A DNA stretch of 64,000 nucleotides from Somniosus microcephalus (Eukaryota). The translations under genes were made by a program, and so were the position numbers. The notes below the pieces were generated by a model that had not been told where the DNA came from, ran no database searches, and worked only from the letters and a program-made list of their open reading frames with translations. Below, piece after piece: positions 7,874 through 63,047 of this stretch. Position 1 is the stretch's first letter. Each line of letters starts with the position of its first letter. The stretch lies in the NCBI GenBank assembly GCA_052327205.1, contig CM126206.1, positions 89,776,001-89,840,000 on the forward strand, in the 5' to 3' direction.

Positions 7874-8182
7874 TGATATACCTATCAATTCATTCCATGA
7901 AAAGCGACGAGTTAAGATAGTAACTATAGGTTTTTATTTGCTAAATAACAGAGCCCACCCTCGTGGGCGATCGGTTCCAACAAGGGAGAATACTAGCCAA
8001 GCGGTCACCTTTATACCTGGGCAAGCAGGCGGAGCCATGGGCGGAGTCAGCTGAGGTAAGCCCAGGCATAGCAGCGTGCGTGGCAAGAGGTAACCTTGTG
8101 TATCGATAACAACAGTGTAAACAGTGATAACAACAGTGTAACAATAGTGAACGGTTGTGAACGGTAACAGTGGTTTACCACA
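7874..8182 (-). repeat. 3' LTR of Gypsy A
   Basis: Direct repeat of 12240-12548; TATAAA and AATAAA on the minus strand. Confidence 0.96.
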
Positions 8183-8224
8183 TTCACCCCTTGTTTAAAA
8201 TTGAGTCCGGCGGGGTGAAGTGTA

Positions 8225-11200
8225 CTACCAGTTCGTGTATGTCAGTCTCTCAGGAGGCCTCGTAAGCCTTTCTGATCGGCGCAGCAGCGGCGGCGGTGGT
8301 GCAGTATCCGATGGTAATGCTGGTGTCTGCGTGGTCGACGAAGGCTCCTGGGGTTCCGGCATGCCATCTACAGTAGCTGGATTTGGGGGAGTGGTGGGGG
8401 GTAACGGAGGTATCTCGGGGGTGCCCGAGGGTGCGAGGTCTCGCAAGGAGACAGTGTCCTCCCGCCTGTCTGGGTATGCCACATAGGCGTACTGGGGGTT
8501 GGCGTGCAGGAGGTCCACCCTCTCGACCAGGGGGTCCATTTTATGGGCCCTCACGTGCTTCCGCAGCAAGACGGGCCCCGGAGAAGTCAGCCATGTTGGT
8601 AATGAGGTTCCCGTAGTCGACTTCCTGGGGAAAACAAACATTCATTCATGGGGGGTGGCGTTAATGACAGTGCAAAGCAGTGACCGGATGGAATGGAGTG
8701 CTGCCGGGAGGACTTCCTGCCAGCGAGAGATTGGGAGGCCCTTAGACTTTAGGGCTAAGAGGACGGCCTTCCAAACTGTCGCGTTTTCTCTTTCCACCTG
8801 GCCGTTCCCCCGGGGGTTGTAGCTGGTGGTCCTGCTCGCAGCAATACCTCTCGCGAGCAGGAACTGGCGAAGTTCCTCGCTCATGAAGGATGCGCCCCGG
8901 TCGCTATGTATATAGTTCGGGAATCCGAACAAGGCGAACAGGTCGTTCAGGCATTTGATGACCGTGGTACTGGTCATGTCTGGGCAGGGGATGGCAAAGG
9001 GGAAACGGGAGTACTCGTCAATAATGTTGAGGAAGTACACATTACGGTCAGAGGACGGGAGGGGCCCCTTAAAATCGATGCTCAAGCGCTCGAAGGGGCG
9101 GGTGGCCTTGATCAGGCTTGCTCTGTCCGGCCTATAGAAATGCGGTTTGCATTCGGCACAGGTTTGGCAGTTCCTGGTCATGGTCCTGACCTCCTCGATG
9201 GAGTAGGGCAGGTTGCGGGCCTTAATGAAGTGGTAAAGTCTGGTGACCCCAGGGTGGCAGAGGTCGTTGTGGAGGGTCCGTAGTCTATCAACTTGCGCGT
9301 TTGCGCAAGTACTTCGTGACAGAGCATCCGGGGGGTCGTTGAGTTTACCAGGCCGGTACAAGATATCGTAATTGTAGGTGGAGAGCTCAATTCTCCACCT
9401 CAAGATCTTGTCGTTCTTGATTTTGCCCTTCAGCTTGTTATTAAACATAAAAGCAACCGAACGCTGGTCGGTGAGGAGGGTAAATCGTTTGCCTGCCAGG
9501 TAATGCCTCCAGCATCATACCGCCTCCACAATCGCCTGGGCCTCCTTCTCGACCGACGAGTGTCGGATCTCAGGGCCCTGGAGGGTCCTTGAGAAGAAGG
9601 CCACAGGTCTCCCCGCCTGGTTAAGGGTTGCCGCTAGGGCGAAGTCGGAGGCATCGCTCTCCACTTGGAAAGGGATGGACTCATCCACCGCGTGCATTGT
9701 GGCCTTCGCAATGTCTCCTTTTATGAGGGAGACGGCTGCGCCTGCTTCTGCTGTCAGGGGGAAGGAGGTGGACTTCATGAGGGGTCTGGCTTTGTCCGCA
9801 TAATTCGGCACCCATTGGGCATAGTAAGCGAAGAGCCCCAGGGTTCTCTTCAGCGCCTTTGGACAGTGGGGGAGGGGAAGCTCCATGAGGGGGCGCATTC
9901 TTTCGGGGTCGGGGCCGATGACTCCGTTCTCTACTACGCAGCCGAGGATGGCCAGGCGCGAGGTATTAAACACACATTTATCCTTATTGTAAGTGAGATT
10001 CAGCTGTTGGGCCGTACGGAGGAATTTCTCCAGATTAACATCATGGTCCTGCTGGTCACGGCCGCAGATGGTGACGTTATCTAGATAAGGGAACGTGGCC
10101 TGAAGCGCATTCTGGTCGACCATCCGGTCCATCTCCCTTTGGAAGACCGAGACTCCGTTGGTGACGCCGAAGGGAACCCTAAGGAAGTGGTAGAGGCGGC
10201 CGTTCGCCTCGAAGGCGGTATACTGGCGGTCCTCAGGGCGGATAGGGAGTTGGTGATAGGCTGACTTGAGGTCGATGGTGGAGAATACCCGGTACTGTGC
10301 AATCTGGTTGACCATATCAGATATGCGGGGAAGGGGGTATGCGTCCAGCTGGGTGTACCGGTTTATGGTTTGGCTGTAGTCGATGACCAGGCGGTGTTTA
10401 TCGCCGGTCTTAACGACTACAACCTGGGCACGCCAGGGGCTGGTGCTCCCCTCGATGATGCCCTCCTTCAGGAGTCGCTGCACCTCAGAGCTAATAAAAG
10501 CTCTGTCCCCGGCGCTGTACCGCCTGCTCTTGGTAGCGATGGGTTTACAGTCATGGGTGAGGTTAGCAAACAAGGAGGGGGGCGGGACTTTGAGGGTGGA
10601 GAGGCCACAGGTGGTACGCGGTGGGCGGTTTAAAATTTGCTGGTTGTAGACTGTGAGTGGGGGGAGGGGTCCACCGTAAGCCAAAGTGACACTTTGAAGG
10701 TGGCATTGGAAATCCAGCCCTAGTAGGACGGCAGTGCAGAGCTGGGGCAGGACGAGAAGTTTAAAATTTTTATATTCCGTGCCCCTAACCAACAGGGTCA
10801 CTACACAGTAGCCGCTAATGTCTGTTGAATGGGACTTCGCCGCCATCGAGATCCGATGGCGCGCTGGCCAGACAGTGAGGGAGTAGCAGCTCACCGTGTC
10901 TGGATGAATAAAACTCTCCGTGCTTCCGCTGTCGAACAGGCAGGACATGGCGTGGCCGTTTACTTCGATGTCCATCATGGACTTGGACAGATGATGTGGG
11001 AGAGCTTGGTCAAGCGTGACGGAGGCCAGAGTATGGCTGAGCGAGCTGCTGTAGTCTGCAGGCGAGGCGGTGGTCGGGTCTGGAGACAGAACGGCGGTCG
11101 AGTGCGGCGAACAAAATGGCGGCGCCCATGACGCGGGTCCCCACGAAGTTGGACAAAATGGCGGAGAAGATGGCCGCCCCCACAACTCACATGAGGCACT

Positions 11201-12199
11201 GCTGGCGTCTGTGGCCTTGATCAAAGATGGCTGCCCCCACGACCCACCTGAGGCAATGCTGGCGTCTGTGGCCTTGATCAAAGATGGCCGCCCCCACAAC
11301 TCACATGAGGCAATGCTGGCATCTGTGGCTTTCCCCCTGCAGGCGTTTACAAAGTGGCCTTTCTTTTTACAGCCGGAGCAGGTCGCGTTCCTTGCAGGGC
11401 AGCGCGCCCTTTGATGTCTCGCCTGGCCACAGAAGAAGCAGCTGGCGGCCCGATCGCGGAGGTCCGCTGCCACAGTGGGTCCCGGGGGTGGCGGTCCCGA
11501 TCGATTCCGGGACACCGACGCCGTGGTGGGTCCCAGGGGTGGCGGTGCGAGGGGAATTGCGGCCGGAGTCGGGCCCGAGTCCCAGGGTCGCGCAGCACAG
11601 TACCTGGAGTACGCCTCGAGGTCCCGATGGGCCACTTCCAGAGAGCAAGTGAGGGCTGCAGTTGTATTCAAGTCGAGGTCCTTTGATTCGAGCAGTCTTT
11701 GCCATGAGTCGTCGGACTGAAGGCCTTTCATGAAGGCATCGCGGATATTCCCTTCAGTATTTTCTGCAGCCGTTACAGCTTTAAAGTCACAGTCCCTGCC
11801 GAGTGTTTGTAACGCCCGTAAAAATTCATCTACAGACTCTCCTGGCTGTTGCGAGCGGGATCTTAGGAGATGTCTGGCATACATAGAATTTACAGGGCTC
11901 CGGTACTGCTCTTTCAGCAGGTTGAGGGCGTCCTCGTATGTAGCAAGGTCCCGGATGAATGCAAATACTTTAGGGCTCACCTGGGCGGTCAGAACTCTTA
12001 GTTTGGATCCCGGAGGCACGCCGGATTCTCCCAGGTAGGATTCGAAACAGCTCAGCCAGTGTTCGAAGTCGAGGGCTGAGTTCGCTGCCTGTGGGTTTAG
12101 ATCCAGGTACGGCGGTCGGAGGGCTTGCAGCCAGGCCGGCTGCTGTGGCTGTTGTAGCTGGCTGTTTGGCTGGTCGTTTGGCTGCTCCGATCCACTCAT
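8225..12199 (-). pseudogene. gag-pol of Gypsy A: one reading frame broken by two TGA stops
   Basis: ORFs 9515-12199, 8642-9448 and 8225-8641 share one frame. Two zinc knuckles, protease LFDSGS, RT YLDN, RNase H ESDAS, integrase HHCC and D,D,E. Confidence 0.93.
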
Positions 12200-12239
12200 T
12201 TCAAAATTTAGCCAATAAATGTTATTTAGCCAATAAAAT

Positions 12240-12548
12240 TGATATACCTATCAATTCATTCCATGAAAAGCGACGAGTTAAGATAGTAACTATAGGTTTT
12301 TATTGGCTAAATAACAGAGCCCACCCTCGTGGGCGATCGGTTCCAACAAGGGAGAATACTAGCCAAGCGGTCACCTTTATACCTGGGCAAGCAGGCGGAG
12401 CCATGGGCGGAGTCAGTTGAGGTAAGCCCAGGTATAGCAGTGTGCGTGGCAAGAGGTAACCTTGTGTATCGATAACAACAGTGTAAACAGTGATAACAAC
12501 AGTGTAACAATAGTGAACGGTTGTGAACGGTAACAGTGGTTTACCACA
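12240..12548 (-). repeat. 5' LTR of Gypsy A
   Basis: TATAAA at 12381-12376 and AATAAA near 12304-12299 (minus strand); GC boxes upstream of the TATA. Confidence 0.96.
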
Positions 12549-32215: not shown

Positions 32216-32764
32216 ATTGCTATGATTGATCAACAACTCCATTATCATTGTAGCATGCGACTACGAGGATGGTTGAAGGCAAACTAGATTCACCTTGGTC
32301 TTTATCGTCTAGCAATTCCTACATTCCACAGATACTGCCTGACCTGTCATTTTTACTGCAAAAGTAAATCATCTCCCAATCACAAGATCAAGTTACATCT
32401 TTTTTTCTGGAAAGACTACTCGAGAGTAGTTTTATTGTACAGAGGTCAACTGTCACAGTTCTATTACGATACTCTCCAAAATTAAGTGTAGCTTTTGGAC
32501 AAATGGCTAGACTTCCTGCATGTTGGCTATGAATGGACAAAAAATCTAGACCAAAGTTGTTTTACCATGTTATTTAATGCTAATTTGGATTCAACTTGGA
32601 CAAAAGTTAGAGTATTTTGTCTTGGCACATGTAGAATTTGTTCATCTGTACATGTATGTATTTGTTATGTGTGCTCCTACTCAACCAACAGATGGCTTCC
32701 ATCCACCCCCCCTCACCTCCTTGTCCTGGCACAAACCCATACTTTTTTCACTTTCTTGTTATAG

Positions 32765-37005: not shown

Positions 37006-37956
37006 TCTAGGAACATGAAATCACAATACACCAGCAGCTTTGAGTCGAAGCAGGCCTGCAACAGTCTGCTGCTGCTGTAGACTTTGCAAGATTTACAGTG
37101 TGGCTCGGGTTCCACAGCACACAACAGACCAAGAGCTGATCAATTATGATGGAAAATAAAAAATGCTGAAAATGCACAGCAAACCTGTCAGCATTTGAAA
37201 GAGGCAAAAAATGGAAGGAGCATTTTGTTGAACTGGTTATAGGCAGGCATTAGAGGAAGAAAGAGAATACAAAAAGTACAGATATGCTAATTACTGTTAC
37301 AATGAGAGCTGAGAAGCTTAGTAGCTTGTAAACAAATTTTGAACTGCTGAAAGAAAGGTGAAAAGTACTTATACAATAGCAAAATACTGCGGATGCTGGA
37401 AATCTGAAACAACAACAGAAAATGCTGGAAACATATACTTAGTTGTTTGAAAATTGTGATTTGTGATTTCTGGCTGCATGATCTTCCCTGGTGGTCTGTA
37501 CAGGCAGGTGAGAAAATCTTTTTACAGTTGCCTCCTGAGGTGCTGGGGGAACACCTCACTGGATTACTTCTTTACAATTGACTGAGCCTTTCATTTTGAT
37601 TTGAAAATCCTTGGTACTGGGACTGATGTATTATTTCATGCGTTCAAATTAAATTATCTGAGGGGGAAGAGGTATCGTTTTCTTGAAAAATATACTGCTG
37701 TGGCGACACGCCACCACTGGACATAATCCGCTCACGGCGGCACGGACAGTTTAAGCAGACGCCCCCAGCCGGGGGCCCTTTCCTCCAGCAACTTGTTTCC
37801 CGCAGGGACAGGCTGCCGGGAGCGCTTCCTGTCTGGGAAGTATTTAAGTGGATGCGCGGGCTTTTCCAGTTCCTCTTTGTCATGAGGTAGAATAAAAGCA
37901 GTTGTGTTTTACTAGCTCTGGTCTCGACTCCCACGTTTGCCGCGGTATCTCAACAC

Positions 37957-37970
37957 TGGTGACCCCGACG
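37957..37970 (+). promoter_or_regulatory. Primer binding site, tRNA-Trp
   Basis: TGGTGACCCCGACG is the reverse complement of the vertebrate tRNA-Trp 3' end (CGUCGGGGUCACCA). Confidence 0.88.
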
Positions 37971-37993
37971 CTCAGGACGCATCCTAAGCTAGC

Positions 37994-40900
37994 ATGGCGG
38001 ATACAAACGCAGTCACGGTTAAATTACCGGACTTTTGGGAGAACCTGGCCGAAGCCTGGTTCGTTCAAGCTGAGTCCAGATTCCGGCTGAAACACATTAC
38101 AGTCGACGCCACAAAGTACGACTACCTCGTCTCCTCTCTCACCTATGCCACAGTCCCCAAGGTTTGGGCAGCGCTGCAGAATCCACCACCGGATGGCAAG
38201 TATGAACATCTGAAGGCTGCGCTCCTTAAAAAATTTCAAACGTCCTCTTACCAGCGCCACTGCCAACTCCTTGACCTCCCCGGCCTTGGTGACGCTTCAC
38301 CATCAGACCTGCTTTCCCACATGCTGTCCCTCTCGGACGACAAAAACCCCGGCGCCCTCTTTCGCACGCTTTTCATTCGGCAGCTCCCCGCCAGCATCCG
38401 CCCGCTCATTGTGGAGTCTGGCTCCACGGACCTGAATGACCTAGCCGAAAAGGCCGACCGGCTGCTCTCTGCACAGTCCGCTCGCGACGTCGCGCCCGAC
38501 CTCACAGCAACGACCACGCGGTCTTCCCGGCCCACTAGGCCCGGCCGCCCTACCACTCCGGGTCACTGCTACTACCACACCCGTTTTGGCGCTAGGGCCC
38601 AATGCTGCACGCCACCGTGTACTTTCAAACCCCCCCTGCACCAGCCCCCGCGATGGCCGCGGGGCAAAAGGGGCCTCGACTGTACGTCACCGACGACAGA
38701 ACCAACCGCCGATTTCTGTGCGACACAGGGGCCCAGCACAGCATCACCCCCGCCTCCGCCCTCGAAATCCAACGCGGCACACGGGGTATCACGCTGGCCG
38801 CAGCCAATGGCTCTGACATCCGCACATATGGCACCCGCATGGTCACACTCGACCTCGCGGGCCGCCGCTACCGCTGGGAGTTCCTCACAGCCAAGGTCCT
38901 CTGCCCACTCCTCGGCGCAGACTTCTTACGCGCCCACGGCCTCCTTGTCGACATTCCGAGGCACCGCCTCGTCGACATCAACACTATGGCCCCCATCCCC
39001 GGCGCATTTACCCTGGCCCGTTCGGCCGGCCTGACGACCTACTGCCTCGCCAGAGCCACGGACGACTACTTGGCACTCCTAGCCGAGTTTCCTGCCCTCA
39101 CTAACCCGACCTTTTCGGCAAAAGCCGCCAAACACGGTGTGGAGCACTATATCCCCACCACCGGCCCCCCAGTTTCTGCCCACGCCCGCAGACTCAACCC
39201 GGCCAAGCTGGAAATCGCGCGAACCGAGTTCACCACCATGGAACAACTCGGCATCATCCGCCGCTCCAGCAGCCCTTGGGCCTCGCCCCTCCACATCGCC
39301 CCCAAGCCCGGCGGAGGCTGGCGCCCTTGCGGGGACTACCGCCGCCTTAACGACGCCACCACCCCCAACCGATACCCGGTGCCACACATCCAGGACTTCT
39401 CGGCCCGACTGGCCGGACGAACCGTCTTTTCCAAAGTCGACCTGGTGCGCGGTTACCACCAAGTCCCCGTACACCCCGCGGACATCCCCAAAACGGCCGT
39501 CATCACCCCATTCGGCCTGTTCGAGTTCCTGAGGATGCCCTTCGGCCTCAAGAATGCAGCCCATGCTTTCCAGCGCCTGATGGACTCAGTCCTCAGGGAC
39601 CTAAACTTCCTATTCGTCTATCTAGACGACATTCTCGTGGCCAGCTCCTCCAAACAGGAACACCTCGAACACCTTCGCATCTTGTTTGGGCGCCTAGCCC
39701 AACACGGGCTCATCCTCAGCCCGGCGAAGTGCCAATTCGGCCTAACCGAGATCGATTTTCTCGGTCACCACATCACCCCTGCTGGGGCCGTCCCCCTGCC
39801 CAACAAGGTGCAGGCCGTCCAGCAATTCCCCCGCCCCACAACCATTAAGGGCCTCCAGGAGTTCCTCGGGATGGTGAACTTCTACAACAGGTTCATTCCC
39901 AGAGCAGCAGCCCTCATGAAGCCCCTATACGACTCCCTCCGAGGTAAATCCGGCAAGATGGACGTAGCCTGGACCACTGACACGTCAGCCGCCTTCGACG
40001 CCACCAAAAACGCGCTCGCCGACGCCACCCTGCTCACGCACCCGAGGGCCGATGCCCGGGTCGCGCTCACCACCGACGCCTCCGACCACGCGGTCGGCGC
40101 CGTGTTCGAGCAGTGGGTCAATGGCGCGTGGCAGCCACTTGCCTTCTACAGCCGCCAACTGCGCCCCCCGGAGGTCAAATACTCCACTTTAAACCGCTAG
40201 CTTCTCGCGCTCCACCTGTCGGTCCGCCATTTCAGGTTCCTCCTGGAAGGCCGCCCCTTCATCGCGTACGTGGACCACAAGCCGCTCACCTACGCGATGG
40301 CCAAGCACACCGAACCCTGGTCCGCTAGGCAGCAACGCCAGCTCGCGGCCGTGTCCGAGTTTACTACGGACATCCAGCACGTCTCCGGTAGAGACAACGT
40401 TGTCGCCGACTGCCTTTCCTGTCCCGCCATCGGCGCAAATCACCTCACGGTCGACTACGCGCAACTAGCAGCGGCCCAGCTCACGGACCCAGACCTCCCC
40501 TCGGCGGCTACCAGCCTGCCAGGGCTACGCCTAGTCAAGGTCGCGCACGGGCCCGAAGCCACGGCAGTCACTTGCGACGTCTCACTCGGCCAACCCAGGC
40601 CGGTCGTCCCTGCAACCTGGCGCCGCCGCATCTTCGACGCGCTCCACGGGCTCTCCCACCCTGGTTCCCGCGCATCCGTCAAACTCCTCTCCCAGCGTTT
40701 CATCTGGCGCGGCCTCAGCAGAGATGTTCGGACTTGGGCCACCTCCTGCCTCGCCTGCCAACGGGCTAAGGTACAGCTGCACACAAAAGCACCCCTGGGA
40801 GACTTCGAGGTACCCAGCCGCCGCTTCAACCACGTACACGTCGACATCGTCGATCCCCTGCCGCCATCGCAAGGCCAAACTTATCTCCTCACGATGGTCG

Positions 40901-41751
40901 ACCGCTACACACGCTGGCCTGAGGCAGTGCCGCTGACCTCCACCACCACAGCCGACATCGCCAGGGCGTTCGTTAACACCTGGGTTGCGAGGTTCGGCGT
41001 ACCGGCCGACATAACCTCTGACAGAGGCGCCCAGTTCACCTCCGAACTCTGGACGGCCACAGCACGCAACCTCGGGGTGACGCTCCACTGAACCACGGCG
41101 TACCACCAGCAGGCCAACGGGCTTTGTGAACGCTTCCACAGGTCACGCAAGGCCTCACTCTGCGCCGGCCTGCAGGACAGTACCTGGACTGACCGCCTAC
41201 CGTGGGTGCTACTAGGCTTACGCACCGCGGTCAAGGAAGACCTCCAGTCCTCGGCAGCGGAGTTAGTCTACGGACAACCGCTGCGCGTCCCAGGCGAATT
41301 CCTTCCGGAGGCTACCACGCCTTGGTCGGCCGAACAGCAGCGGCTCAACTCTTTCTCTTCCGCTCAGCAGTTCGTCCCACTTCCGGTCAACCGACACGGC
41401 GAACTCGCACCTCACGTCCCGCCAAATTTACAGCAGGCGCGCTTCGTCTTCGTGCGACACGACGCGCACCGCGGGCCCCTGCGACCCCCGTACGACGGAC
41501 CGTACGAGGTGCTACAAACCGGGGACAAGGTCTTCAAGCTGCGACTCGGCGACAGGGTCGACACAGTCTCCATCGACCGGCTCAAACCAGCACACACACA
41601 ACCAGGGGAACAGGTCCCCGTGGCACGGCCTCCAACTAGAGGCCGTCCCGCCAGCAAGCCAGCACAGCCGGCGGCGAACCGCCCGGCCCCACCAACTAGA
41701 CCGGTGACCACTCAGAGCCGCTGCGGCGGAACCATCAGACCACCGTCATGA
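37994..41751 (+). pseudogene. gag and pol of Gypsy C (pol in the -1 frame, two nonsense codons)
   Basis: Gag VKLPDFW..WFVQAE; PR FLCDTGA; RT YLDD; RH TTDAS; IN HVDIV..SDRG..CER. Stops at 40198-40200 and 41089-41091. Confidence 0.92.
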
Positions 41752-43078
41752 CTCGTCCACCCCTCCTAAGCGGATTCTGGGGGGAGCTCTGTGGCGACAC
41801 GCCACCACTGGACATAATCCGCTCACGGCGGCACGGACAGTTTAAGCAGACGCCCTCAGCCAGGGGCCCTTTCCTCCAGCAACTTGTTTCCCGCAGGGAC
41901 AGGCTGCCGGGAGCACTTCCTGTCTGGGAAGTATTTAAGTGGATGTGCGGGCTTTTCCAGTTCCTCTTTGTCATGAGGTAGAATAAAAGCAGTTGTGTTT
42001 TACTAGCTCTGGTCTCGACTCCCACGTTTGCTGCGGTATCTCAACACTGCATTGTTAGTGACTTGCTGCACCAGGGTGTGGAAAGATGCAGGTTATAGCA
42101 GTGTTCTTTGCTCCTCTCAGATGGGGCTTGTGGGGAGGCAGGGCAGAGGCCTGCTGTGAGGGAGGGAGGCGGTTAGAAAATGAGTCATCGAAAGCAACGC
42201 TTGCAACTTAACCAGGCTGAAGAGGCCTCCAAATCTTTCTCAGAAAAGGAATTGTATGATTTATGAGAGAGAAAAATAATTGTATAAATGGTAGAGATGA
42301 AGAAAATATTGCGCTACTTTTTTAAAAAACTTATTTTTGACTACCTCTCCTGCAAGAAGTTTCTCTTTGCTTTTTCTGGAGTACGGCTTTGATGAACCCC
42401 AGAGTCCCTTTTATAATAGCAAAATACTGCGGATGCTGGAAATCCGAAATAACATCTTTCGATTAGGCACTCTACAGCCCTCTGGACTCAACATAGAGTT
42501 CAACAATTTCAGATCATAACCTCGGCCCCTATCACATATATATATATTTTTTAAATTTTTATCCACACCTTTTGGTTGGCCTTTTTTCTTCCCTCCCACA
42601 TGGCAGCTGTCCTTCATTCTGCCAGCGCAATTATCACTTTGTAGGAATGTCTAGTTCCTATCAAGAGACTGAGGTCGACTCAGGCGATCAAACAAATGAT
42701 GTTTAATGTAAAACTAATTGAGTTTAACAAACAGATGCAAGAAAACTACGAATACAGGTCTAGTCAGTTCAGAGGCTCCACGAGGACTGCTTGGGCGGTC
42801 CCGTGGCTGGCGTCATGACGTCATCACGTTTTTCCCACCGGTGGGGGATCACGTGATGAACGGCATGATGTCATCGCGTTTGCCCACGCTCCCAAAGGGA
42901 CCGCGCTCTGTACATGCAAACAGTATATACAAAGATACAGACTCAGGCTGTAGCTAACATATTGTTAAAGGGAATTATATACATTTGATCGGAGTCCCTT
43001 AGTGGCTCTGCCACATGCGCCCCCCCAGAATTGTCTTTAACAGAAAAAGTGAAACAGCGAGGAGGCCTGACAAGCCTG

Positions 43079-46000
43079 TCAGAGCGACTTCTGTACACTT
43101 GGAGTGGAAGCTGCTGGACGGCTGGCGGGCAGCTGCGCTTGATCTGGTACGGCGACTGTGGGCGGTCGGCCACGTTTTGGCGGCTGTGCGGTCTCGACCG
43201 GGCGGTCAAGGTCCCAGTGTGCCGGTTTCAACCGGTCAACCGAAATGTGGTCCGGTTTACCTCCGATATCCACCGAGAAAGTTTTGTCTCCCGGCTCTAG
43301 CACGCGGAAAGGACCAGTGTAAGGGGCCTTGAGCGGATCCCGATGAGCGTCGTGGCGGATGAACACATATTCATCGTTCTTCAGCTCTGCTGGGACGTGG
43401 GAGCTCTGAAAGCCATGATGCGACGTTGGTACTGGTGCAAAACACCTGGCTGCCTCCTGGTGGCTGATGAGTTGATTGGATGCGGACCATGGCTCTGTTG
43501 GAGTCGGAAGGAAATCCCCTGGCACGCGTAGCGGCTGGCCATAGCCGAGCTCTGCCGAGGACGAGCGAAGATCTTCCTTGGGCGCCGTGCGAAGACCCAA
43601 CAGGACCCATGGTAGCCTGTCCACCCATCCAGTGCCTTGGAGGCTGGCCCTCAGTGCAGCTTTGAGCGACCTGTGAAACCGTTCACACAAGCCGTTCGCC
43701 TGTGGATGGTATGCTGTGGTGCGATGTAGCTTGATGCCGAGCCCCTGAGCCACTGCATTCCAGAGCTCAGAGGAAAATTGCGGTCCACGATCAGAAGAGA
43801 TGTCCGCCGGTACCCCGAAACGGGCAACCCAAGAGGAGATGAATGCCCTGGCTACGTCTGCCGAAGCGGTGGATGACAAGGGAGCTGCCTCCGGCCATCT
43901 AGTGGTGCGGTCTACCATCGTAAGGATATGTATAAACCCATGAGAAGGTGGAAGTGGCCCCACCAGGTCCACATTCACGTGATCGAACCGTCGCTCCAGA
44001 ACAGCGATGGTGGCCAATGGAGCTTTGACGTGACGCTGCACCTTGGCCTTTTGGCAGACCACGCAGGTGTTGGCCCAGTCGCGGACATCATATGCATGCC
44101 TCGCCAAACGAACTTGGACGACATCAGCCTTTGCGAGGCCTTCATGCCAGGGTGTGACAACCCGTGTATGGCGTCAAACACTTTTCGGCGCTAGGCGACC
44201 GGCACGATAGGGTGAGGATCTCCTACGGAGACGTCACAAAGTAGCGTGGTGCCTGCGGCGTGGAACTTGATGTCGGCCGCTTGGAGGCTAGAGGGGCTGG
44301 TTCGGTAAGCTTGCACTTCTGGATCCGAGGCTTGATCCGCAGCCATGAGGGCATAGTCAATGCCGAGCTGGACTGCCTGAACGGTCGCGCGGGAGAGGCA
44401 ATCCGCCACCAGGTTGTCTTTACCGGCCACGTGCTGAATATCAGTAGTGAATTCAGAGATAAACGTTAAGTGACGCTGTTGTCGGGCTGACCACGGTTCG
44501 GCAGTCTTGGCCATGGCGAACGTTAGTGGCTTATGGTCTACAAAAGCAGTGAAAGGACGTCCTTCCAGCAAGAACCGGAAATGGCGGATGGCCAGAAAAA
44601 GAGCCAGCAACTCCCAGTCGAAGGTACTGTACTTCCGCTCGTTTCACCGTAGTTGACGGCTGAAGAATGCCAGCGGTTGCCACGTCCCATTTACCCACTG
44701 TTCCTGCACTGCACCAATGGCGTAGTCGGATGCGTCGGTGGTGAGGGCGATGGTGGCACCTGGCAGCGGGTGCGCCAGCATGGTCGCGTTGGCGAGGGCA
44801 CTTTTTGTGTCAACGAACGCCCGTTCCATGTCGACCATCCAGCTTACCGGGTCCTTGCCAGACTTGCCCTTGAGGGCCTCGTACAGGGGCTGCATGAGCA
44901 GAGCTGCCTTAAGCACGAAGCGGTGGTAATCCCAAGGAACTCCTGCAGGGCCTTGATGGTCTGCGGGCGCGGAAATGATGTCACCGCCTCTACCTTTGCT
45001 TGCAAAGGCACCGCTCCCTCCGATGTAATGCGATGTCCCAGGAAATCAATGTGGGGCAGACCAAACTGACACTTGGCCGGGTTGAGAATCAGGCCATGTT
45101 GGCTGAGGCGACGAAAGAGGGTGCGTAGGTGCGTGATGTGTTCCTCCTTATTTTGACTGGCCACGAGGATGTTGTCTAAATAGACGAAAAGGAACTTGAG
45201 GTCCCGCAGCACGGAGTCCATGAGGCGCTGGAAGGCCTGGGCAGCGTTCTTCAACCCAAAAGGCATCCTCAAAAATTCAAAAAGGCCGAATGGGGTGATG
45301 ACTGCGGTCTTCTGTACGTCTTGCGGGTGTACCGGGACCTGGTGGTAGCCTCGGACCAGATCCACCTTGGAAAACATGGTGTTCCCAGTCAAATGGGCAG
45401 AGAAATCCTGAATGTGGGGGATCGGGTATCGATCAGGAGTGGTAGCGTCGTTAAGTCGCTGATACTCGCCACATGGCTGCCATCCGCCGCCAGGTTTCGG
45501 TACTATGTGGAGAGGCGAAGACCAGGGACTATTGGACCAGCGAATAATCCCCAGGCGTTCCATCGTAGCGAACTCCGCTTTCGCGACCGCCAGCTTGCCG
45601 GGTTCGAGGCGCCGGGCCCGCGCGTGGGCTGGTGGTAGTGATGTGGTGTTCCACACCATGCTTCGTGGCCGTAGAGGAGAACGTAGGTCTGGTCAGGTCC
45701 GGAAATTCACCGAGCAGGCGAGGGAACTCGTCCGGAGTTGGGAAAGCGCAGGAGACGGTGCGCGACATGGTGGTACCACGGTGGCAAGGAATGGAGTGAA
45801 ACGTGGCCACGTTGATCAGCCGCCGGTTCCTCACATCGACCAGGAGGCCGTTGGCGCACAGGAAATCCGCGCTGAGGATGGCTTGTGAAACCCTGGCTGT
45901 AACAAATTCCCAAACAAATCGCTGGCCGCCGAAGCACACCTGGACCCGCCGTTTGCCGAAGGTCTGGATAGCTCCGCCATTAGCCACTTCGAGTGAGAGG

Positions 46001-46798
46001 CCGTGCCTCCCAGCTTGAACATCAATAGCGGACGCGGGTATAATGCTGCACTGTGCGCTGGTGTCGCATAGGAATCGCCGACCAGAGATGGAATCAATGA
46101 TGAACAACAGCTTGCCATCGCAGCCGCAGGGCACCCGTCAGACCCGTTCTTCTTTTGCCGGGGTTGCAGTTTTTTTTGGGGGGGGAGAAGCTGCAGGGAG
46201 GGCGGCTACATCTGGCTTTCGCGCCAAACCGCGCGTGGTAGGAGCACAGCCCCGAAGGTTGAGGAGCTGGGGTGGCGTCTGTGGGGGATGGGTGCCTCGT
46301 GGCAGTGCAGTACTGCTGCATCATCGCGAAAATCTTGTCCGCTTCGGCAGCAAGTGCTGCGCAGTCTGAGACTTCGGACCTGGCCAGGGCAGCTTGTACT
46401 TGCTCCGGTAACTGACTGAGGAAGAGCTCCCTAAAGAGGAAGCATTCCGGTTCGGAGCCAAGGAGCGTGAGCATTTGGCTCATGAGCTCAGACGGCTTGG
46501 AGTCCCCGAGGCCGGGCAAAGCGAGCAGTCGGCGGGCGCGCTCCGACTTCGTGAGCCCGAAGACCTGTAACAACCGCACCTTGATTGTTTCATACTTACG
46601 GTCGTCCGGGGGGTTCTCAAGCAGGCTGACAATCCACGACGCGGTGGAGCTGTCGAGTGCGGAGACCACGTAAAAATATCGGGTCTGATCCGCAACGATG
46701 TTCCGTAATGCAAAGTGGGCTTCGACCTGGATGAACCAGGCGGTCGCTTGTTGCTCCCAGAATTGCGGTAGCTTCAATGCAACGGCGTTCGTTTCCAT
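43079..46798 (-). pseudogene. gag-pol of Gypsy D with multiple frameshifts and stops
   Basis: Gag from METNAVALKLPQFW (46798); PR, RT, RH and IN pieces lie in different frames (45529-46134, 44844-45659, 44644-44916, 44191-44610, 43079-44107). Confidence 0.92.
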
Positions 46799-47014
46799 GG
46801 TTCGTTCCTTCTGCGAAAACCGTTCGCAAAAGTCAGGGTCACCAATGTAGGAATATCTAGTTCCTATCAAGAGACTGAGGTCGACTCAGGCAATTAAACA
46901 AACGATGTTTAATGTAAAACTAATTGAGTTTAACAAACAGATGCAAGAAAACTACGAATACAGGTCTAGTCAGTTCGGAGGCTCCACGAGGACTGCTTGG
47001 GCGGTCCCGTGGCT

Positions 47015-47082
47015 GGCGTCATGACGTCATCACGTTTTTCCCACCGGTGGAGGATCACGTGATGAACGGCATGACGTCATCG
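47015..47082. promoter_or_regulatory. CRE (TGACGTCA x2) and E-box (CACGTG) cluster in LTR D
   Basis: Motif match only; one CRE is mutated in the other LTR copy. Confidence 0.4.
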
Positions 47083-47416
47083 CGTTTGCCCACGCTCCCA
47101 AAGGGACCGCGCTCTGTACATGCAAACAGTATATACAAAGATACAGACTCAGGCTGTAGCTAACATATTGTTAAAGGGAATTATATACATTTGATCGGAG
47201 TCCCTTAGTGGCTCCGCCACAACTTAATCTAGAGCCATCCTTTGTTCCTTAACCTATCCCATTACCACCTCCTCTTGCCTTGAATATCTCTTAATGTCTC
47301 TTAATCTCTCCTGCTTTCTATCCTATCACTGACCTTCCCTTTTGTTCTTTCATCCCCTCCCCCTTTTCTCAGCCCCTAACTTGCTTTAAAATCCATTCCT
47401 TTTCCTGCTTTTTTCT

Positions 47417-50501: not shown

Positions 50502-51002
50502 GGCCTAGAAATTCAGTTGCTTGCGCCAGCCGGTAGCGCCTTAGGAGGAGGAGATGTTGGGCGCTAGGCGGCTAGCGGCCGGGCGCAGCGCGATCTGCGC
50601 CTCTCCCCAACTTCACTCACGATTTAGCGGTGGCGCAAAGTCTTTGCGCGCGCTCAGCTGCGCGCGCAGATCCTGACGTCATTTCCTCGTGCAACGCCCT
50701 TTGTGCGCCCCAAACCGGAAATTCAGTCGCAACGCCCTATTGTGCGCCTGGCGCCCCTAGCGACTGGTAGAGGGGAATGGTTCTCAGTCGATGTGGGGGG
50801 CGCAAATTAAAGGGCACACCTCCTGCAGTAGAAAAGGCTGCCATTTCGCAGCACTCCTTTTTGAGAGACGGATCTTTGCAGAGAGACAAAGGTAGAGAGC
50901 TTTCTGCTTTGGCTCAACACTCGGACAGGTACTTGTGGCTTCAGGCCACAGCTTTCCACTTGTCTTTGCCTTCAGTGTCATATCATTGTTTGCAAACATA
51001 TA

Positions 51003-52115
51003 ATGGGGGCTGCAATGGGTGCAAACGCTGGCCTTCTTCATTGCATCCAAAGGGCTCACAGACGCCGTGAGAGAGTGGCAGTCCTGGCTAGACGGAGAGG
51101 GGGCAACAGGTGTCGGGAAAGGAGGCCTTACCCACCCAGGCTATACCGCCAGCAGTTCTCCTATCTGAACATGTCTGACGAGCAGTGTGTTCGGAGGCTG
51201 CGGTTCCGAAGGGCGGTGGTCACTGAGATCTGCAACCTGCTTGGCGGTGATCTGCAGCCACATCTGAGGAGCAGGACGTCTCTGTCGGTGGCAGTGAAGG
51301 TGACGGTGGCTCTCAACTTCTATGCCACCGGCTCCTTCCAATCCACTACTGGGGACATTTCCAACATCTCCCAGTTCGCCGTGCATTGCTGCATCCGCCA
51401 GGTGACCAATGCCCTTTTCAAAAGGAGACGTCAGTTCATCTCCTTCTCCATGGCCCTTGTCAAGCAGCAACAGCGTGCAATGGGCTTTGCAGCATTCGCG
51501 GGCTTCCCCATCGTGCAGGGCGCCATTGACTGCACGCATGTGGCTTTGCGGGCACCTCTGGAGAATGCCGAGGATTACCGCAACCGGAAGGGCTACCATT
51601 CCCTCAACGTTCAGCTGGTGTGTGACCACAGGCAGCTCATCCTAGCTGTCAATGCCCGCTTTCCAGGCAGCAGCCACGATGCCTTCATCCTGCGCCAGAC
51701 TTCTGTGGCAGACATGTTCCAGGCCCAGCCTCGCCCACGAGGATGGCTTCTCGGGGACAAAGGCTATCCTTTGTGTACCTGGCTGATGACCCCGCTCCGT
51801 GCGCCCAGCACCCCTGCTGAAGAGGGATACAACGACAGCCATCAAGCGACCAGGAACATCATTGAGCAAACAATCGGCGTCCTGAAGCAATGGTTCCGCT
51901 GTCTGGATCGTTCCCGTGGAGCCCTACAATATTCGCCGGAGCGAGTCTCCCATTTCGTGGTCATGTGCTGCATGCTGCACAACCTGGCTATCCGCAGGAC
52001 TCAGCCACTGCCACCAGAGATTGGAGGACCACCTGAGGAGGAGGAGGACCAGCACAGGAGGGAGGCAGAAAGTGCAAGGGCCGCCCGTCGGCGGCTTATT
52101 GAACGTTGGTTCTAG
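51003..52115 (+). CDS. Harbinger (HARBI1-like) DDE transposase, 370 aa, open frame
   Basis: GAIDCTHV, NRKGYHSLNVQLVCD, PGSSHD, LLGDKGY and IIEQTIGVLK..FRCL motifs; N-terminal HTH region. Confidence 0.93.
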   Translation: MGAAMGANAGLLHCIQRAHRRRERVAVLARRRGGNRCRERRPYPPRLYRQQFSYLNMSDEQCVRRLRFRRAVVTEICNLLGGDLQPHLRSRTSLSVAVKVTVALNFYATGSFQSTTGDISNISQFAVHCCIRQVTNALFKRRRQFISFSMALVKQQQRAMGFAAFAGFPIVQGAIDCTHVALRAPLENAEDYRNRKGYHSLNVQLVCDHRQLILAVNARFPGSSHDAFILRQTSVADMFQAQPRPRGWLLGDKGYPLCTWLMTPLRAPSTPAEEGYNDSHQATRNIIEQTIGVLKQWFRCLDRSRGALQYSPERVSHFVVMCCMLHNLAIRRTQPLPPEIGGPPEEEEDQHRREAESARAARRRLIERWF

Positions 52116-58620: not shown

Positions 58621-58767
58621 TGATGTGCCTCAATAAATCCGAGACTTGATGTTAGCGAAACAAAACAAGGCTTTTATTGACTTAGAAGGTAACACACAGG
58701 AGAGAGGTATCTTCCATCCAGAGCTCTGCCGTACTGAATGTGCTGCAGGCTGGGCCAGCTTACATAG

Positions 58768-58851
58768 GGGCCAGGTATGGGCGGAGCCCTACACATAGTA
58801 CAATACAATGGGCCAGGTATGGGCGGAGCCCTACACATAGTACAATACAAT
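58768..58851. repeat. 42-bp tandem duplication with a GC box in the U3 of LTR B (present in both LTRs)
   Basis: GGGCCAGGTATGGGCGGAGCCCTACACATAGTACAATACAAT x2. Confidence 0.9.
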
Positions 58852-58946
58852 GGTGAGGAAACGGAACAGAGGTAAGGGAAATGAAACTGAAACCAACCAC
58901 AGTCACAGGCAGTGATGAATGGAATATTTCATCACATTCACCCCTT

Positions 58947-61900
58947 CTATAGATTTAGTCTGTTCGGGGGTTTGATAATCCTCTGCGACCGACGTGGCTG
59001 TTGTGGTGCCGCGGGTGTCGGCTGGGTGTCCCCGGTGGCCTCCTGGGTCTCTGCCGGGGGTGCTGCCAGGGTTGTTGAAGGGGTAGTTGGTGGGGGTGCC
59101 GTTGGTCGATGTTCTTCCGGGGGTGATGAAAGAGTAGTGGGTGGGTAAGAGTTGCTGTGATCGTTGTTGCTGCTATTGTCGTGGTTGTTGTCGTTACCGG
59201 CTGGGGCGACGTCTTTTATGGACACGGTGTCCTCCCTTCCGTCGGCGTGCCGGACATACGCGTATTGGGGGTTGGCGTGGAGTAGGTGCACTGGCTCCAC
59301 GAGAGGGTCCGTCTTGCGGCCCCTCACATGCCTTCGCACGAATACTGGACCTGGGGTGGAGAGCCATGACGGCATGGATATGCCTGAGGTGGATTTCCGG
59401 GGAAAGACAAACATTCGTTCATGAGGCGTGGCATTAGTGGCAGTACACAATAGCGACCGTATCGAATGGAGCACATCTGGGAGGACTTCCTGCCAGCGGG
59501 AGATAGGGAGGCCCTTGGTCCTTAGAGCTAGAGTGACTGCTTTCCATACTGTCCCGTTCTCTCGCTCCACTTGACCGTTACCCCGGGGGTTGTAGCTGGT
59601 GGTACGGCTCGTGGCGATCCCCCTGGACAGTATGTACTGGCGTAGCTCTTCACTCATGAAGGACGCCCCCCTATCCGTATGGATGTAGCTCGGCATACCG
59701 AACAGGCAGAACAGGCTGTTGAGGCATTTAATGACCGTGGCACTGGTCATGTCTGGGCAGGGGAAGGCGAATGGGAACCGGGAGTATTCGTCCACAATGT
59801 TCAGGAAGTAAACATTGCGGTCGACGGACGGGAGGGGGCCCTTGACATCTAAGCTGAGCCGCTCAAAGGGCCGTGTAGCTTTGATTAAGTGGGCTCTATC
59901 TGGGCGGTAGAACCGAGGCTTGCACTCAGCGCAAGTGCGGCAGTTCCTGGTCAGAGACCGAACTTCCTCAATCGAGTAGGGTAAGTTGCGGGACTTTATG
60001 AAGTGGAACAGCCGCGTGACCCCTGGGTGGCAGAGGTCGTTGTGGAGGGTCTGTAGCCGATCCCCGGTGGCGCTGGCACATATCCCTCGTGAGAGGGCGT
60101 CAGGGGATTCGTTAAGGGCCCCTGGCCGGTAAATGATGTCATACTCGAAGGTGGAGAGCTCGATCCGCCACCTAAGAATCTTATCATTTTTGATCTTCCC
60201 CCTCTGTTTATTATTGAACATAAACGCTACCGACCGCTGGTCGGTAAGTAGGGTGAAGCATTTGCCGGCTAGGTAGTGGAGCCAGTGGCACACTGCCTCC
60301 ACGATGGCTTGGGCCTCCTTTTCCACGGAGGAGTGTCTGATCTCGGGCCCTTGGAGGGTCCTCGAGAAGAAAGCTACGGGCCGCCCCGCCTGGTTGAGGG
60401 TGGCCGCCAAGGCAAAGTCAGACACATCACTTTCCACTTGAAATGGAGTGTTCTCGTCCACTGCCTGTAGCGTGGCCCGCTCAATATCCTGCTTAATGCT
60501 TTTGAAGGCGGCGTGGGCCTCAGCAGAGAGCGGAAAAGAGGATGCTTTCAAGAGGGGGCGGGCTTTGTCGGAGTAGTTGGGGACCCATTGGGAATAATAA
60601 GAAAATAACCCCAGGCACCTTTTCAGGGCTTTGGGAGTGTTGGGCAGGGGCAGCTCCCGTAGGGGGCGCAATCGGTCGGGGTCTGGTCCGATTTCCCCAT
60701 TCTCCACCACGCTGCCTAGTATGCAGAGGCGCGTGGTGTTGAAAACGCACTTGTCCTCGTTGTAGGTGAGGTTGAGTTTTTGTGCGGTTTTCAGGAACCT
60801 CTCGAGGTTCGAGTCGTGATCCTGCTGGTTGTGACCGCAGATGGTGACGTTGTCGAGGTAGGGGAAGGTTGCCTGCAAGTGGTGGTCATCGACCATGCGG
60901 TCCATCTCCCTCTGGAAGACCAAGACCCCATTCGTCACCCCAAAGGGGACTCTGAGGAATTGGTAGAGGCGTCCGTTCGCCTCGAAGGCGGTGTACGGGC
61001 GGTCCTCTGGTCTGATAGGGAGCTGGTGGTACGCTGACTTGAGGTCGATGGTGGAGAACACCCGGTATTGGGCGATTTGGTTCACCATTTCTGATATGCG
61101 GGGTAGCGGGTAGGCGTCTAGTTGGGTGTACCTGTTGATCGTTTGGCTATAGTCGATCACCATCCGTTTCTTCTCGCTACCCCTTACCACTGCCACTTGG
61201 GCGCGCCATGGGCTGTTGCTGCGTTCAATAATGCGCTCTTTCAGGAGCCTGTCTACCTCGGTCGCGATAAACCGCCTGTCCTCCCAGCTGTACCTCCTGC
61301 TTTTGGTCGCTATTGGCCGGCAGTTAGGGGTAAGGTTCGCGAATAGCGAAGGCGACTTTACCTTCAGGGTAGCCAGACCGCACACTGTGAGGGGCGGCTG
61401 GGACCCACCGTACTTGAGCGTGATGCTTTGGTGGTTGCACTGGAAATCTAGGCCCAAGATCACGCTCGCACATAGATTCTTCATGATTAATACTTTAAAA
61501 TTATCGTATACAGTTCCGTTAACGGACAATTGTACCGTGCAGTAACCCATGATGGTCGATGTCTGGGTTTTATCAGCCATAGAGATGGTACCCCGAGTAG
61601 GGACCACCTTTAGGGAGAGTTGTTGTGCCAGTTCAGGGTGGATAAAACTCTCCGTGCTTCCACTGTCAATTAAACATTTAACCCTGCACCCGTTTACCTC
61701 GATGTCCACCATTGATTTGGATAGCGGGTGCGGCCTGGTCTGGTCCACTGTGACCGATGCCACTGTAAGGCCCTGATCGAGACAAGATGGCGTCCACGCT
61801 GTCTGCTCATAAGATGGCGGACCCCACGAGGTCGGGCAAGATGGCGTCCAAGATGGCCGCTCCCACGGCGCACATGCGGCGGTGGCGGGTTTTCCGGCGG

Positions 61901-62705
61901 GGTTCCCTCTGCACACCTTCCCGAAGTGCCCCTTCTTACCGCACTTAAAGCAGGTGGTGCCTTTCGCCGGGCACAGGTTTCTGGTGTGCTTCGGCTGCCC
62001 GCAGAAGTAGCAGTTGGGTCCCCGACGCGTCGCGGCTGTCGTAGGGCTTCTCGGGGGAGAGCGGTGCCCCGACGGTGTCGGGCTGCCGGGCGGGGAAGAT
62101 GCCTTCCAAGATGGCGGCGCCCTTGGTGCGCACGTGGCGGCGTGGATGGTGCGGGCTGAAGAGTAGGCGTCCGAGTTTCTCTGGGCCACATCCAGGGATC
62201 GCGCTGTGTCCGCAGCCTGTTTCAGGTCCAATCCCGTTTTTTCCAGCAATCTCTGCCGGATGTAAGTGGAGCTGAGGCCTGTGATAAAGGCATCGCGAAC
62301 AAGCTCGTCAGTGTACACTGCGGCTTTTACATCTTGGCACTTGCAGTCTTTGCCAAGCGTTTTCAGGGTGCCTAGGAACTCCTCCACCGATTCCCCAGGT
62401 CGCTGTGCGCGAGTAGTGAGCAGATGCCTAGCATACACCTCGTTCGTAGGCTGCTGGTAATGCGCCTTTAAGATGTCGCAGGCGGCCGGGTACGTGTCGG
62501 CGTCTTGGATGAGGGGGTAAACCCGGTGGCTTACCCAATTCCGCAGAATTCCGAGTTTCATACTCGCAGCGTCCGTAGCGCCTTTGACGGCTGCGGAATT
62601 GTCCAGGAAGAATTCCATACACATAAACCAGTGTCCGAAGCGTGCCGATGCGTCCGAAGCATGCTGGTCCAAATCCAAACGTTCGGGTTTCAAGAGTTGA
62701 TCCAT
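58947..62705 (-). CDS. Uninterrupted Gag-PR-RT-RH-IN polyprotein of Gypsy B, 1252 aa from the first ATG after the LTR
   Basis: Zinc knuckles, LIDSGS protease, YLDN RT, RNase H, HHCC and D,D,E integrase; the stop abuts the PPT. Confidence 0.95.
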   Translation of the reverse strand: MDQLLKPERLDLDQHASDASARFGHWFMCMEFFLDNSAAVKGATDAASMKLGILRNWVSHRVYPLIQDADTYPAACDILKAHYQQPTNEVYARHLLTTRAQRPGESVEEFLGTLKTLGKDCKCQDVKAAVYTDELVRDAFITGLSSTYIRQRLLEKTGLDLKQAADTARSLDVAQRNSDAYSSARTIHAATCAPRAPPSWKASSPPGSPTPSGHRSPPRSPTTAATRRGPNCYFCGQPKHTRNLCPAKGTTCFKCGKKGHFGKVCRGNPAGKPATAACAPWERPSWTPSCPTSWGPPSYEQTAWTPSCLDQGLTVASVTVDQTRPHPLSKSMVDIEVNGCRVKCLIDSGSTESFIHPELAQQLSLKVVPTRGTISMADKTQTSTIMGYCTVQLSVNGTVYDNFKVLIMKNLCASVILGLDFQCNHQSITLKYGGSQPPLTVCGLATLKVKSPSLFANLTPNCRPIATKSRRYSWEDRRFIATEVDRLLKERIIERSNSPWRAQVAVVRGSEKKRMVIDYSQTINRYTQLDAYPLPRISEMVNQIAQYRVFSTIDLKSAYHQLPIRPEDRPYTAFEANGRLYQFLRVPFGVTNGVLVFQREMDRMVDDHHLQATFPYLDNVTICGHNQQDHDSNLERFLKTAQKLNLTYNEDKCVFNTTRLCILGSVVENGEIGPDPDRLRPLRELPLPNTPKALKRCLGLFSYYSQWVPNYSDKARPLLKASSFPLSAEAHAAFKSIKQDIERATLQAVDENTPFQVESDVSDFALAATLNQAGRPVAFFSRTLQGPEIRHSSVEKEAQAIVEAVCHWLHYLAGKCFTLLTDQRSVAFMFNNKQRGKIKNDKILRWRIELSTFEYDIIYRPGALNESPDALSRGICASATGDRLQTLHNDLCHPGVTRLFHFIKSRNLPYSIEEVRSLTRNCRTCAECKPRFYRPDRAHLIKATRPFERLSLDVKGPLPSVDRNVYFLNIVDEYSRFPFAFPCPDMTSATVIKCLNSLFCLFGMPSYIHTDRGASFMSEELRQYILSRGIATSRTTSYNPRGNGQVERENGTVWKAVTLALRTKGLPISRWQEVLPDVLHSIRSLLCTATNATPHERMFVFPRKSTSGISMPSWLSTPGPVFVRRHVRGRKTDPLVEPVHLLHANPQYAYVRHADGREDTVSIKDVAPAGNDNNHDNSSNNDHSNSYPPTTLSSPPEEHRPTAPPPTTPSTTLAAPPAETQEATGDTQPTPAAPQQPRRSQRIIKPPNRLNL

Positions 62706-63047
62706 TGTGTTGAAAATTAAGTCAATAAAATTGATGTGCCTCAATAAATCTGAGACTCGATGTTAGCGAAACAAAACAAGGCTTTTATTGACTTAGAAGG
62801 TAACACACAGGAGAGAGGTATCTTCCATCCAGAGCTCTGCCGTACTGGATGTGCTGCAGGCTGGGCCAGCTTACATAGGGGCCAGGTATGGGCGGAGCCC
62901 TACACATAGTACAATACAATGGGCCAGGTATGGGCGGAGCCCTACACATAGTACAATACAATGGTGAGGAAACGGAACAGAGGTAAGGGAAATGAAACTG
63001 AAACCAACCACAGTCACAGGCAGTGATGAATGGAATATTTCATCACA

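Follow-up and report, generated by a model that had tools for sequence, protein, structure and literature searches.

Closest described systems

Reverse transcriptases (RTs) almost always need the second aspartate of their YxDD motif. A natural example of asparagine ending polymerase motif C is the GDN of negative-strand RNA virus polymerases. Ty3/Gypsy elements (Metaviridae) typically, though not by definition, carry the YxDD triad and a tRNA primer-binding site, and Ty3 of Saccharomyces primes with a tRNA. What the third RT aspartate contributes is a question of long standing: with Asn in its place the Ty1 and Ty3 enzymes still work in vitro, yet in the cell the change is not tolerated. In Ty3, D151N and D213N abolish activity and D214N retains it at lower processivity, and all of these mutants, D214N included, fail to transpose (available part of PMC5371799). 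In Ty1, the D211N enzyme keeps its in vitro activity with a 223-fold lower kpol and a preference for Mn; the chemistry can thus proceed without the third carboxylate, and second-site changes in RNase H restore 5-10% of transposition (available part of PMC2148107). A preliminary description of the DNA studied here had stated that D211N blocks Ty1 transposition and leaves polymerisation in vitro, in agreement with that source.

Two compact LTR retrotransposons, A and B, in the 64,000-nucleotide stretch of DNA analysed here (the window) carry YLDN at this motif. Asn is the wild type of more than 30,000 copies in their families, whereas D214N is lethal for Ty3 transposition and D211N is a laboratory mutant of a Ty1/copia element without a natural lineage. 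The GDN polymerases share a natural motif C Asn with A and B but are RNA polymerases.

Natural YVDN enzymes are on record in nematode BEL/Pao elements (Belpaoviridae), namely Cer7-Cer12 of C. elegans and the Atlas virus of A. ceylanicum (available parts of PMC554778 and of PMC9094657 with its preprint); their activity, in the words available from PMC554778, remains to be determined. As in the families of A and B, the change of the second Asp to Asn is natural there and occurs in intact, young LTR elements, but these belong to another superfamily, and the clade of A and B extends across several animal phyla, including a vertebrate, with both D and N inside it. Because BEL/Pao and Ty3/Gypsy are different superfamilies, YxDN would have arisen independently in them, and the present clade would be a second natural origin, within the Ty3 superfamily itself. 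The lineage replicating naturally with YxDN that the preliminary description proposed very likely exists in Ty3/Gypsy, but natural YxDN is not without precedent. No report of natural YxDN in Ty3/Gypsy turned up in a literature search that took in few subscription journals and neither Repbase reports nor GyDB; an earlier description in print may therefore exist.

Structure and classification of elements A and B

The features of both elements are collected in Table 1. Re-reading of the sequence confirmed YLDN at the positions given earlier, on the minus strand, and in both elements the motif is enclosed by the context FPYLDNVTICG. It aligned onto YLDD of Ty3 in a phmmer comparison with the Ty3 RT (PDB 4ol8), and the Asn therefore sits at the position of Ty3 D214. 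The elements are about 4.4 kb long, lack env and show two CCHC knuckles in translation. Pfam placed protease at residues 333-421 of B, RVT_1 at 511-664, RNase H at 751-853 and rve at 944-1040, which is the Gag-PR-RT-RH-IN order of Ty3/Gypsy. The LTR pairs are near-identical, as had been noted, with 4 mismatches in 309 bp in A and 3 in 316 bp in B, and each element is flanked by a 5-bp target duplication. The A copy itself is now broken by its two in-frame stops. The two RTs agree in 227 of 281 residues and differ by 121 synonymous codon changes (dN 0.13; dS 2.3, i.e. saturated). The preliminary description had noted that the codons next to the motif differ synonymously while the Asn is common to both.

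Table 1. Positions of the features of elements A and B, of the control motif and of related loci
Feature	Position	Strand	Remarks
Element A, whole	7874-12548	-	LTR pair and target duplication
Element A 5' LTR	12240..12548	-	309 bp, TG..CA
Element A leader at primer-binding position	12220..12239	-	19 bp complementary to 12298-12316 in the poly(A)-signal region of its own LTR; no tRNA-type TGG
Element A gag-pol frame	8230..12199	-	two in-frame stops
Element A RT domain	9701..10543	-	281 aa, 81% identical to B
Element A RT motif-A aspartate (IDLKS)	10271..10273	-	intact
Element A RT motif YLDN	10076..10087	-	TAT CTA GAT AAC; canonical YxDD position, by reading and Ty3 alignment
Element A 3' LTR	7874..8182	-	polypurine tract before it; target duplication TGGTC
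Element B, whole	58621-63047	-	LTR pair and target duplication
Element B 5' LTR	62732..63047	-	316 bp
Element B leader	62715..62731	-	13 bp complementary to 62783-62795 in its own LTR
Element B gag-PR-RT-RH-IN frame	58947..62705	-	single frame, 1252 aa, no internal stop
Element B RT motif-A aspartate	61044..61046	-	intact
Element B RT motif YLDN	60849..60860	-	TAC CTC GAC AAC
Element B 3' LTR	58621..58936	-	target duplication TGCAG
Control: YLDN of CsRn1-like element D	45171..45182	-	GAC AAC; outside the lineage, decayed copy of a YLDD family
Leader-LTR pairing sites	window 12220-12316, 62715-62795; loci L071-L090, L200-L219, L091-L170		pairing with AATAAA region
Family E, example copies (own genome, G000)	L201, L208-L211, L215-L217		

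The RT type is that of Ty3/Gypsy. An AlphaFold model of the RT (pLDDT 93) had Ty3 RT 4ol8 as its best Foldseek match, and the same entry was the best sequence match in the PDB, so that Saccharomyces Ty3, which also has the same domain order, is the closest solved RT by sequence and by fold. The TG..CA LTR pair, the polypurine tract and the short target duplication are those of the superfamily as well; the YxDD triad and the tRNA primer-binding site, typical but not defining, are both missing.

Several narrower identities were considered. Membership in BEL/Pao was rejected, because elements of that group have a triple Cys-His box, a BEL-type RT and frequently env, as against two CCHC knuckles, no env and an RT nearest to Ty3. 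The CsRn1 clade was rejected too: element C of the window, which like element D we take from its motifs to be CsRn1-like, falls outside the A/B clade (support 100), and C and D have leaders with TGG, whereas A and B do not. Cigr-1 elements, with short LTRs and a single ORF of about 1,200 codons, resemble A and B in architecture and are a candidate affiliation, as is a MolGy clade. Cigr-1 is a named clade of Ty3/Gypsy (available part of PMC6238403). The Saci2/lennie clade has a tRNA primer site and a 4-bp target duplication (available part of PMC12471100); A and B, with 5-bp duplications and no tRNA site, are set apart from it by that description.

Distribution and phylogeny

Homologous proteins (n=266) read DN in 138 cases, DD in 120 and something else in 8. 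Those below 40% identity, which lie outside the clade, read DD in 46 of 46 cases and DN in none. DN was carried by proteins of Scyliorhinus (catshark), Mobula (ray), Plakobranchus (sea slug), Spirometra (tapeworm) and Trichinella (nematode), DD by proteins of Trichonephila and Petrolisthes. Judged by the closest named homologs, the host is likely a cartilaginous fish. Metagenome loci were similarly mixed (41 DN, 35 DD and 4 other among 80), and a search of viral contigs gave no relative. Single database proteins may be decayed, but the rate of false DN judged from the element D control, about 2%, is far too low to account for the observed proportions.

A tree was built from the rows that spanned the region with either DN or DD (228 of 269); near-duplicates were removed, and 14 of 26 outgroup rows were retained. 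The 163 ingroup rows (97 DN, 66 DD) fell into a single clade (support 100), in which DD is basal and the state changes 17 times or more. A subset of 91 rows required 13 changes, of which 6 were forced by strong branches, as against 30 with shuffled labels. Monophyly of YLDN, which the preliminary description had put forward as a test of the lineage, was rejected: D and N interleave, and a tree holding DN together had a p-AU of 4.9e-117. YxDN is not monophyletic on this tree, and within the clade the site switches back and forth between D and N.

The clade has the signature SPWRAQ and DYSQT in the fingers region (RT residues 36-60). Gln of SPWRAQ was present in 162 of 162 clade rows, where the outgroup mostly has Pro (43 of 47 rows). 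The usual Arg of DYR was replaced by Ser in 145 of 162 clade rows. No mention of the SPWRAQ signature was found in the literature searched.

Signs of replication by the Asn families

Twenty loci of the Asn families were fetched, and the 14 with a resolved LTR pair had LTR identities of 96.5-100%; three of the others had no LTR pair and three returned a flanking repeat. Selection was measured on 13 Asn copies from different families, chosen for Asn (78 pairs; dS window 0.15-1.5). Median dN/dS was 0.061 for RT (35 of the 78 pairs in the dS window), 0.022 for RNase H (43 of 78) and 0.087 for integrase (46 of 78), with 0.143 for protease and 0.268 for Gag in the same copies. By these ratios, purifying selection acts strongly on the Asn-family RTs. 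The motif-A Asp and the first Asp of YxDN were kept in all 13 copies, with both GAC and GAT in use, and the Asn codon appeared as AAC and AAT. On the tree of these copies, picked for Asn, comparable synonymous sites had changed 2.4 times on average, and 11 of 150 had, like the Asn, never changed; the Asn may be preferred or simply tolerated. All 13 also possessed the four RNase H acids (D-E-D-D), and the integrase D-D was kept.

No RNA data set was listed for the window itself; the two RNA-seq runs used came from a related organism and not from the individual of this genome. Their reads spanned element B end to end, with first mates mostly on the plus strand in most bins, an excess which in most stranded libraries corresponds to sense RNA; the RNA ends in the two runs pointed to no start site. 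At the Asn codon, where the depths were about 380 and 830, every change, Asp-type ones included, stayed below 2%, whereas neighbouring third positions varied.

With Asn family-wide (see below), young LTRs, a constrained RT, conserved catalytic residues and transcripts that carry the Asn codon, it is very likely that the A and B families replicate with YxDN, as the preliminary description had suggested. The substitution is genuine and shared across the lineage, and it is probably functional. We hold with considerable confidence that A and B belong to a widespread, compact clade of animal Ty3/Gypsy elements which mostly have Asn RTs and are likely to retrotranspose with their own, predicted active, YxDN enzyme.

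Alternatively, the Asn RT might be inactive or not strong enough, with a YLDD relative copying these families in trans. Ty1 and Ty3 are blocked in vivo by the same substitution, and a candidate is at hand in family E, a separate young family inside the clade on the tree. It has about 3,500 YLDD copies in this genome, its LTRs are 97.5-100% identical, and its RT shares about 61% of residues with that of B. Family E is active in this genome and a possible helper of the Asn families. However, help from family E would leave the selection on the Asn RTs unexplained: a dead RT would not be expected to stay as constrained as integrase, nor to keep both catalytic aspartates through synonymous change. 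The motif-A Asp is also kept in 94 of 97 DN homologs, DN recurs in several phyla, and Asn copies outnumber those of family E by about 11 to 1. We therefore regard copying in trans as quite improbable.

The self-complementary leader

At the primer-binding position all 14 resolved Asn loci (of the 20 fetched) possessed a leader that starts one base after the LTR and can form a stem of 10-19 bp with the poly(A) signal and its surroundings in the element's own LTR. In A and B this leader (ATTTTATT..) likewise pairs with the own LTR and lacks TGG, whereas elements C and D have primer sites of the TGG type. The stem sequence changes on both sides between families, among N and D members alike. In element A a short duplication of the leader (window 12221-12202) extends the stem to 19 bp, as compared with 15 bp in the sister copy L074. 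A tRNA-free, self-complementary leader is known from Tf1 of fission yeast, which primes itself; the leader of A and B resembles it, but its partner is the LTR's poly(A)-signal region and not the presumed 5' end of the transcript. Ty3, being primed by a tRNA, differs from A and B, which have no TGG site. The leader could serve as a tRNA-free primer site, as a mask of the 5' poly(A) signal, or as both.

The preliminary description had suggested a possible link of the Asn to this unusual priming, with co-occurrence of the two as a test; on the strongest version of that link, the Asn would have been an adaptation to self-priming by the hairpin of the leader. The leader is indeed present in every resolved Asn locus, DN was not seen outside the clade (0 of 46 homologs), and among metagenome loci with enough upstream DNA, many of them decayed or truncated, a stem of at least 11 bp was found in 14 of 29 DN loci, 3 of 19 YxDD loci and 0 of 51 control windows. 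Yet the YLDD family E has the leader too, in all 10 of the 20 fetched copies whose LTR pair could be resolved, and that family has spread to thousands of copies; the three YxDD metagenome loci (L131, L132 and L152) carry it as well, and D and N interleave on the tree. The leader thus does not need Asn, and the proposed link fails in that YLDD elements have it too. As a requirement the tie to priming, itself a putative route, is largely refuted, and an adaptive link is in our judgement very doubtful. The self-complementary leader appears instead to be a clade-wide trait that is independent of N or D, and its pairing may be a more novel trait of the clade than the Asn.

A possible role for the third position

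The explanation for natural YxDN enzymes may lie in the protein background. The two retained aspartates would bind the two metal ions and carry catalysis, and the Asn amide could fill the accessory role that the third carboxylate holds in Ty3 and Ty1. An early change of the background in the clade might then have made the third position permissive for either Asn or Asp. Such a permissive background is chemically plausible in view of the in vitro activity of Ty3 D214N and Ty1 D211N and of the Ty1 suppressors. Candidate compensating residues were sought in the palm. Thr two residues before the motif-A Asp occurred in 75 of 95 DN and 19 of 66 DD sequences, Lys being found there in 0 of 95 DN sequences, and Thr at YxDN+2 was enriched with N. 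In tests on independent pairs, corrected for kinship, both Thr positions gave p values of 0.25-1 with 7 pairs; the enrichment was not significant, and neither Thr stands as a compensating residue.

We lean slightly towards a further reading, namely that A and B represent an unnamed pan-animal clade of Ty3/Gypsy whose RT works at full strength on two aspartates, the third flipping freely between Asp and Asn. The Asn form would then be the dominant autonomous retrotransposon of this vertebrate genome, and its use of metals, its speed or its fidelity might not be those of the Asp form. If this is true, natural N and D sister families are available side by side for comparison. Since tens of thousands of young Asn copies share the genome with a YLDD sister, the question can be tested directly on unaltered enzymes. 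Annotation rules that score any YxDN RT as dead would misclassify one of the most abundant young LTR groups of this genome.

Asn as the family state

The genome from which the window comes was searched over 6.45 Gb with the pattern P-Y-L-D-x-V-T-I-C-G. This gave 32,377 matches with Asn, 46 with Asp and 40 with Ser, and the reversed control patterns gave 0 matches each genome-wide. The Asp count is close to the level of ordinary A-to-G drift, for which Ser is the control. A looser pattern returned 39,793 matches with N and 3,520 with D, the D matches coming mainly from one separate family (family E). A family B query without the motif yielded Asn at 29 of 30 loci, the other being unreadable, and a family A query that included the motif yielded Asn at 30 of 30. 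The family sequences thus do not read YLDD, the outcome that the preliminary description had named as fatal to its proposal.

What CpG-type decay looks like can be seen in the family of element D, with 5,126 DD and 101 DN among 5,227 copies genome-wide; the A and B families show the inverted ratio. That YLDN arose by decay after insertion (CpG transition), or as an assembly artefact, from YLDD families has practically no chance of being right, for although decay does occur, as in element D, A, B and their sister families stand at 32,377 N to 46 D, and independent sets of DNA and RNA reads show the Asn. The A and B families carry Asn as their own state, and decay is not its source. The earlier caveat that GAT AAC in A would need two hits was mistaken, GAT GAC to GAT AAC being a single transition, but the counts make the point moot.

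When 9 D and 40 N copies were placed on a tree, the Asp copies within the Asn families lay scattered: they required 8 changes, with a mean of 8.4 after shuffling, and they are thus sporadic mutations. An amplified sub-lineage of Asp revertants is ruled out by the scatter of these 9 copies. Sporadic Asp was somewhat enriched in the GAC AAC context, where, with 9 fetched copies to 1,123 with Asn, it is seemingly commoner than Ser in the genome-wide control (40 versus 32,377).

Other elements in the window

Element C (37698-42049, plus strand), which is CsRn1-like, reads YLDD, and the CsRn1-like element D (42640-47221, minus strand) has acquired its YLDN by decay. The frame at 50865-52115 (plus strand) presumably encodes a Harbinger-like transposase, to judge from its motifs. 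A second frame (52488-53240, minus strand) is convergent with it and holds 33-bp repeats. At 53818-54249, units of 54 bp form a tandem array within an open frame. The region 55081-57728, with endonuclease and RT, is by its motifs presumably a CR1-like LINE; it is near full-length but contains stops.
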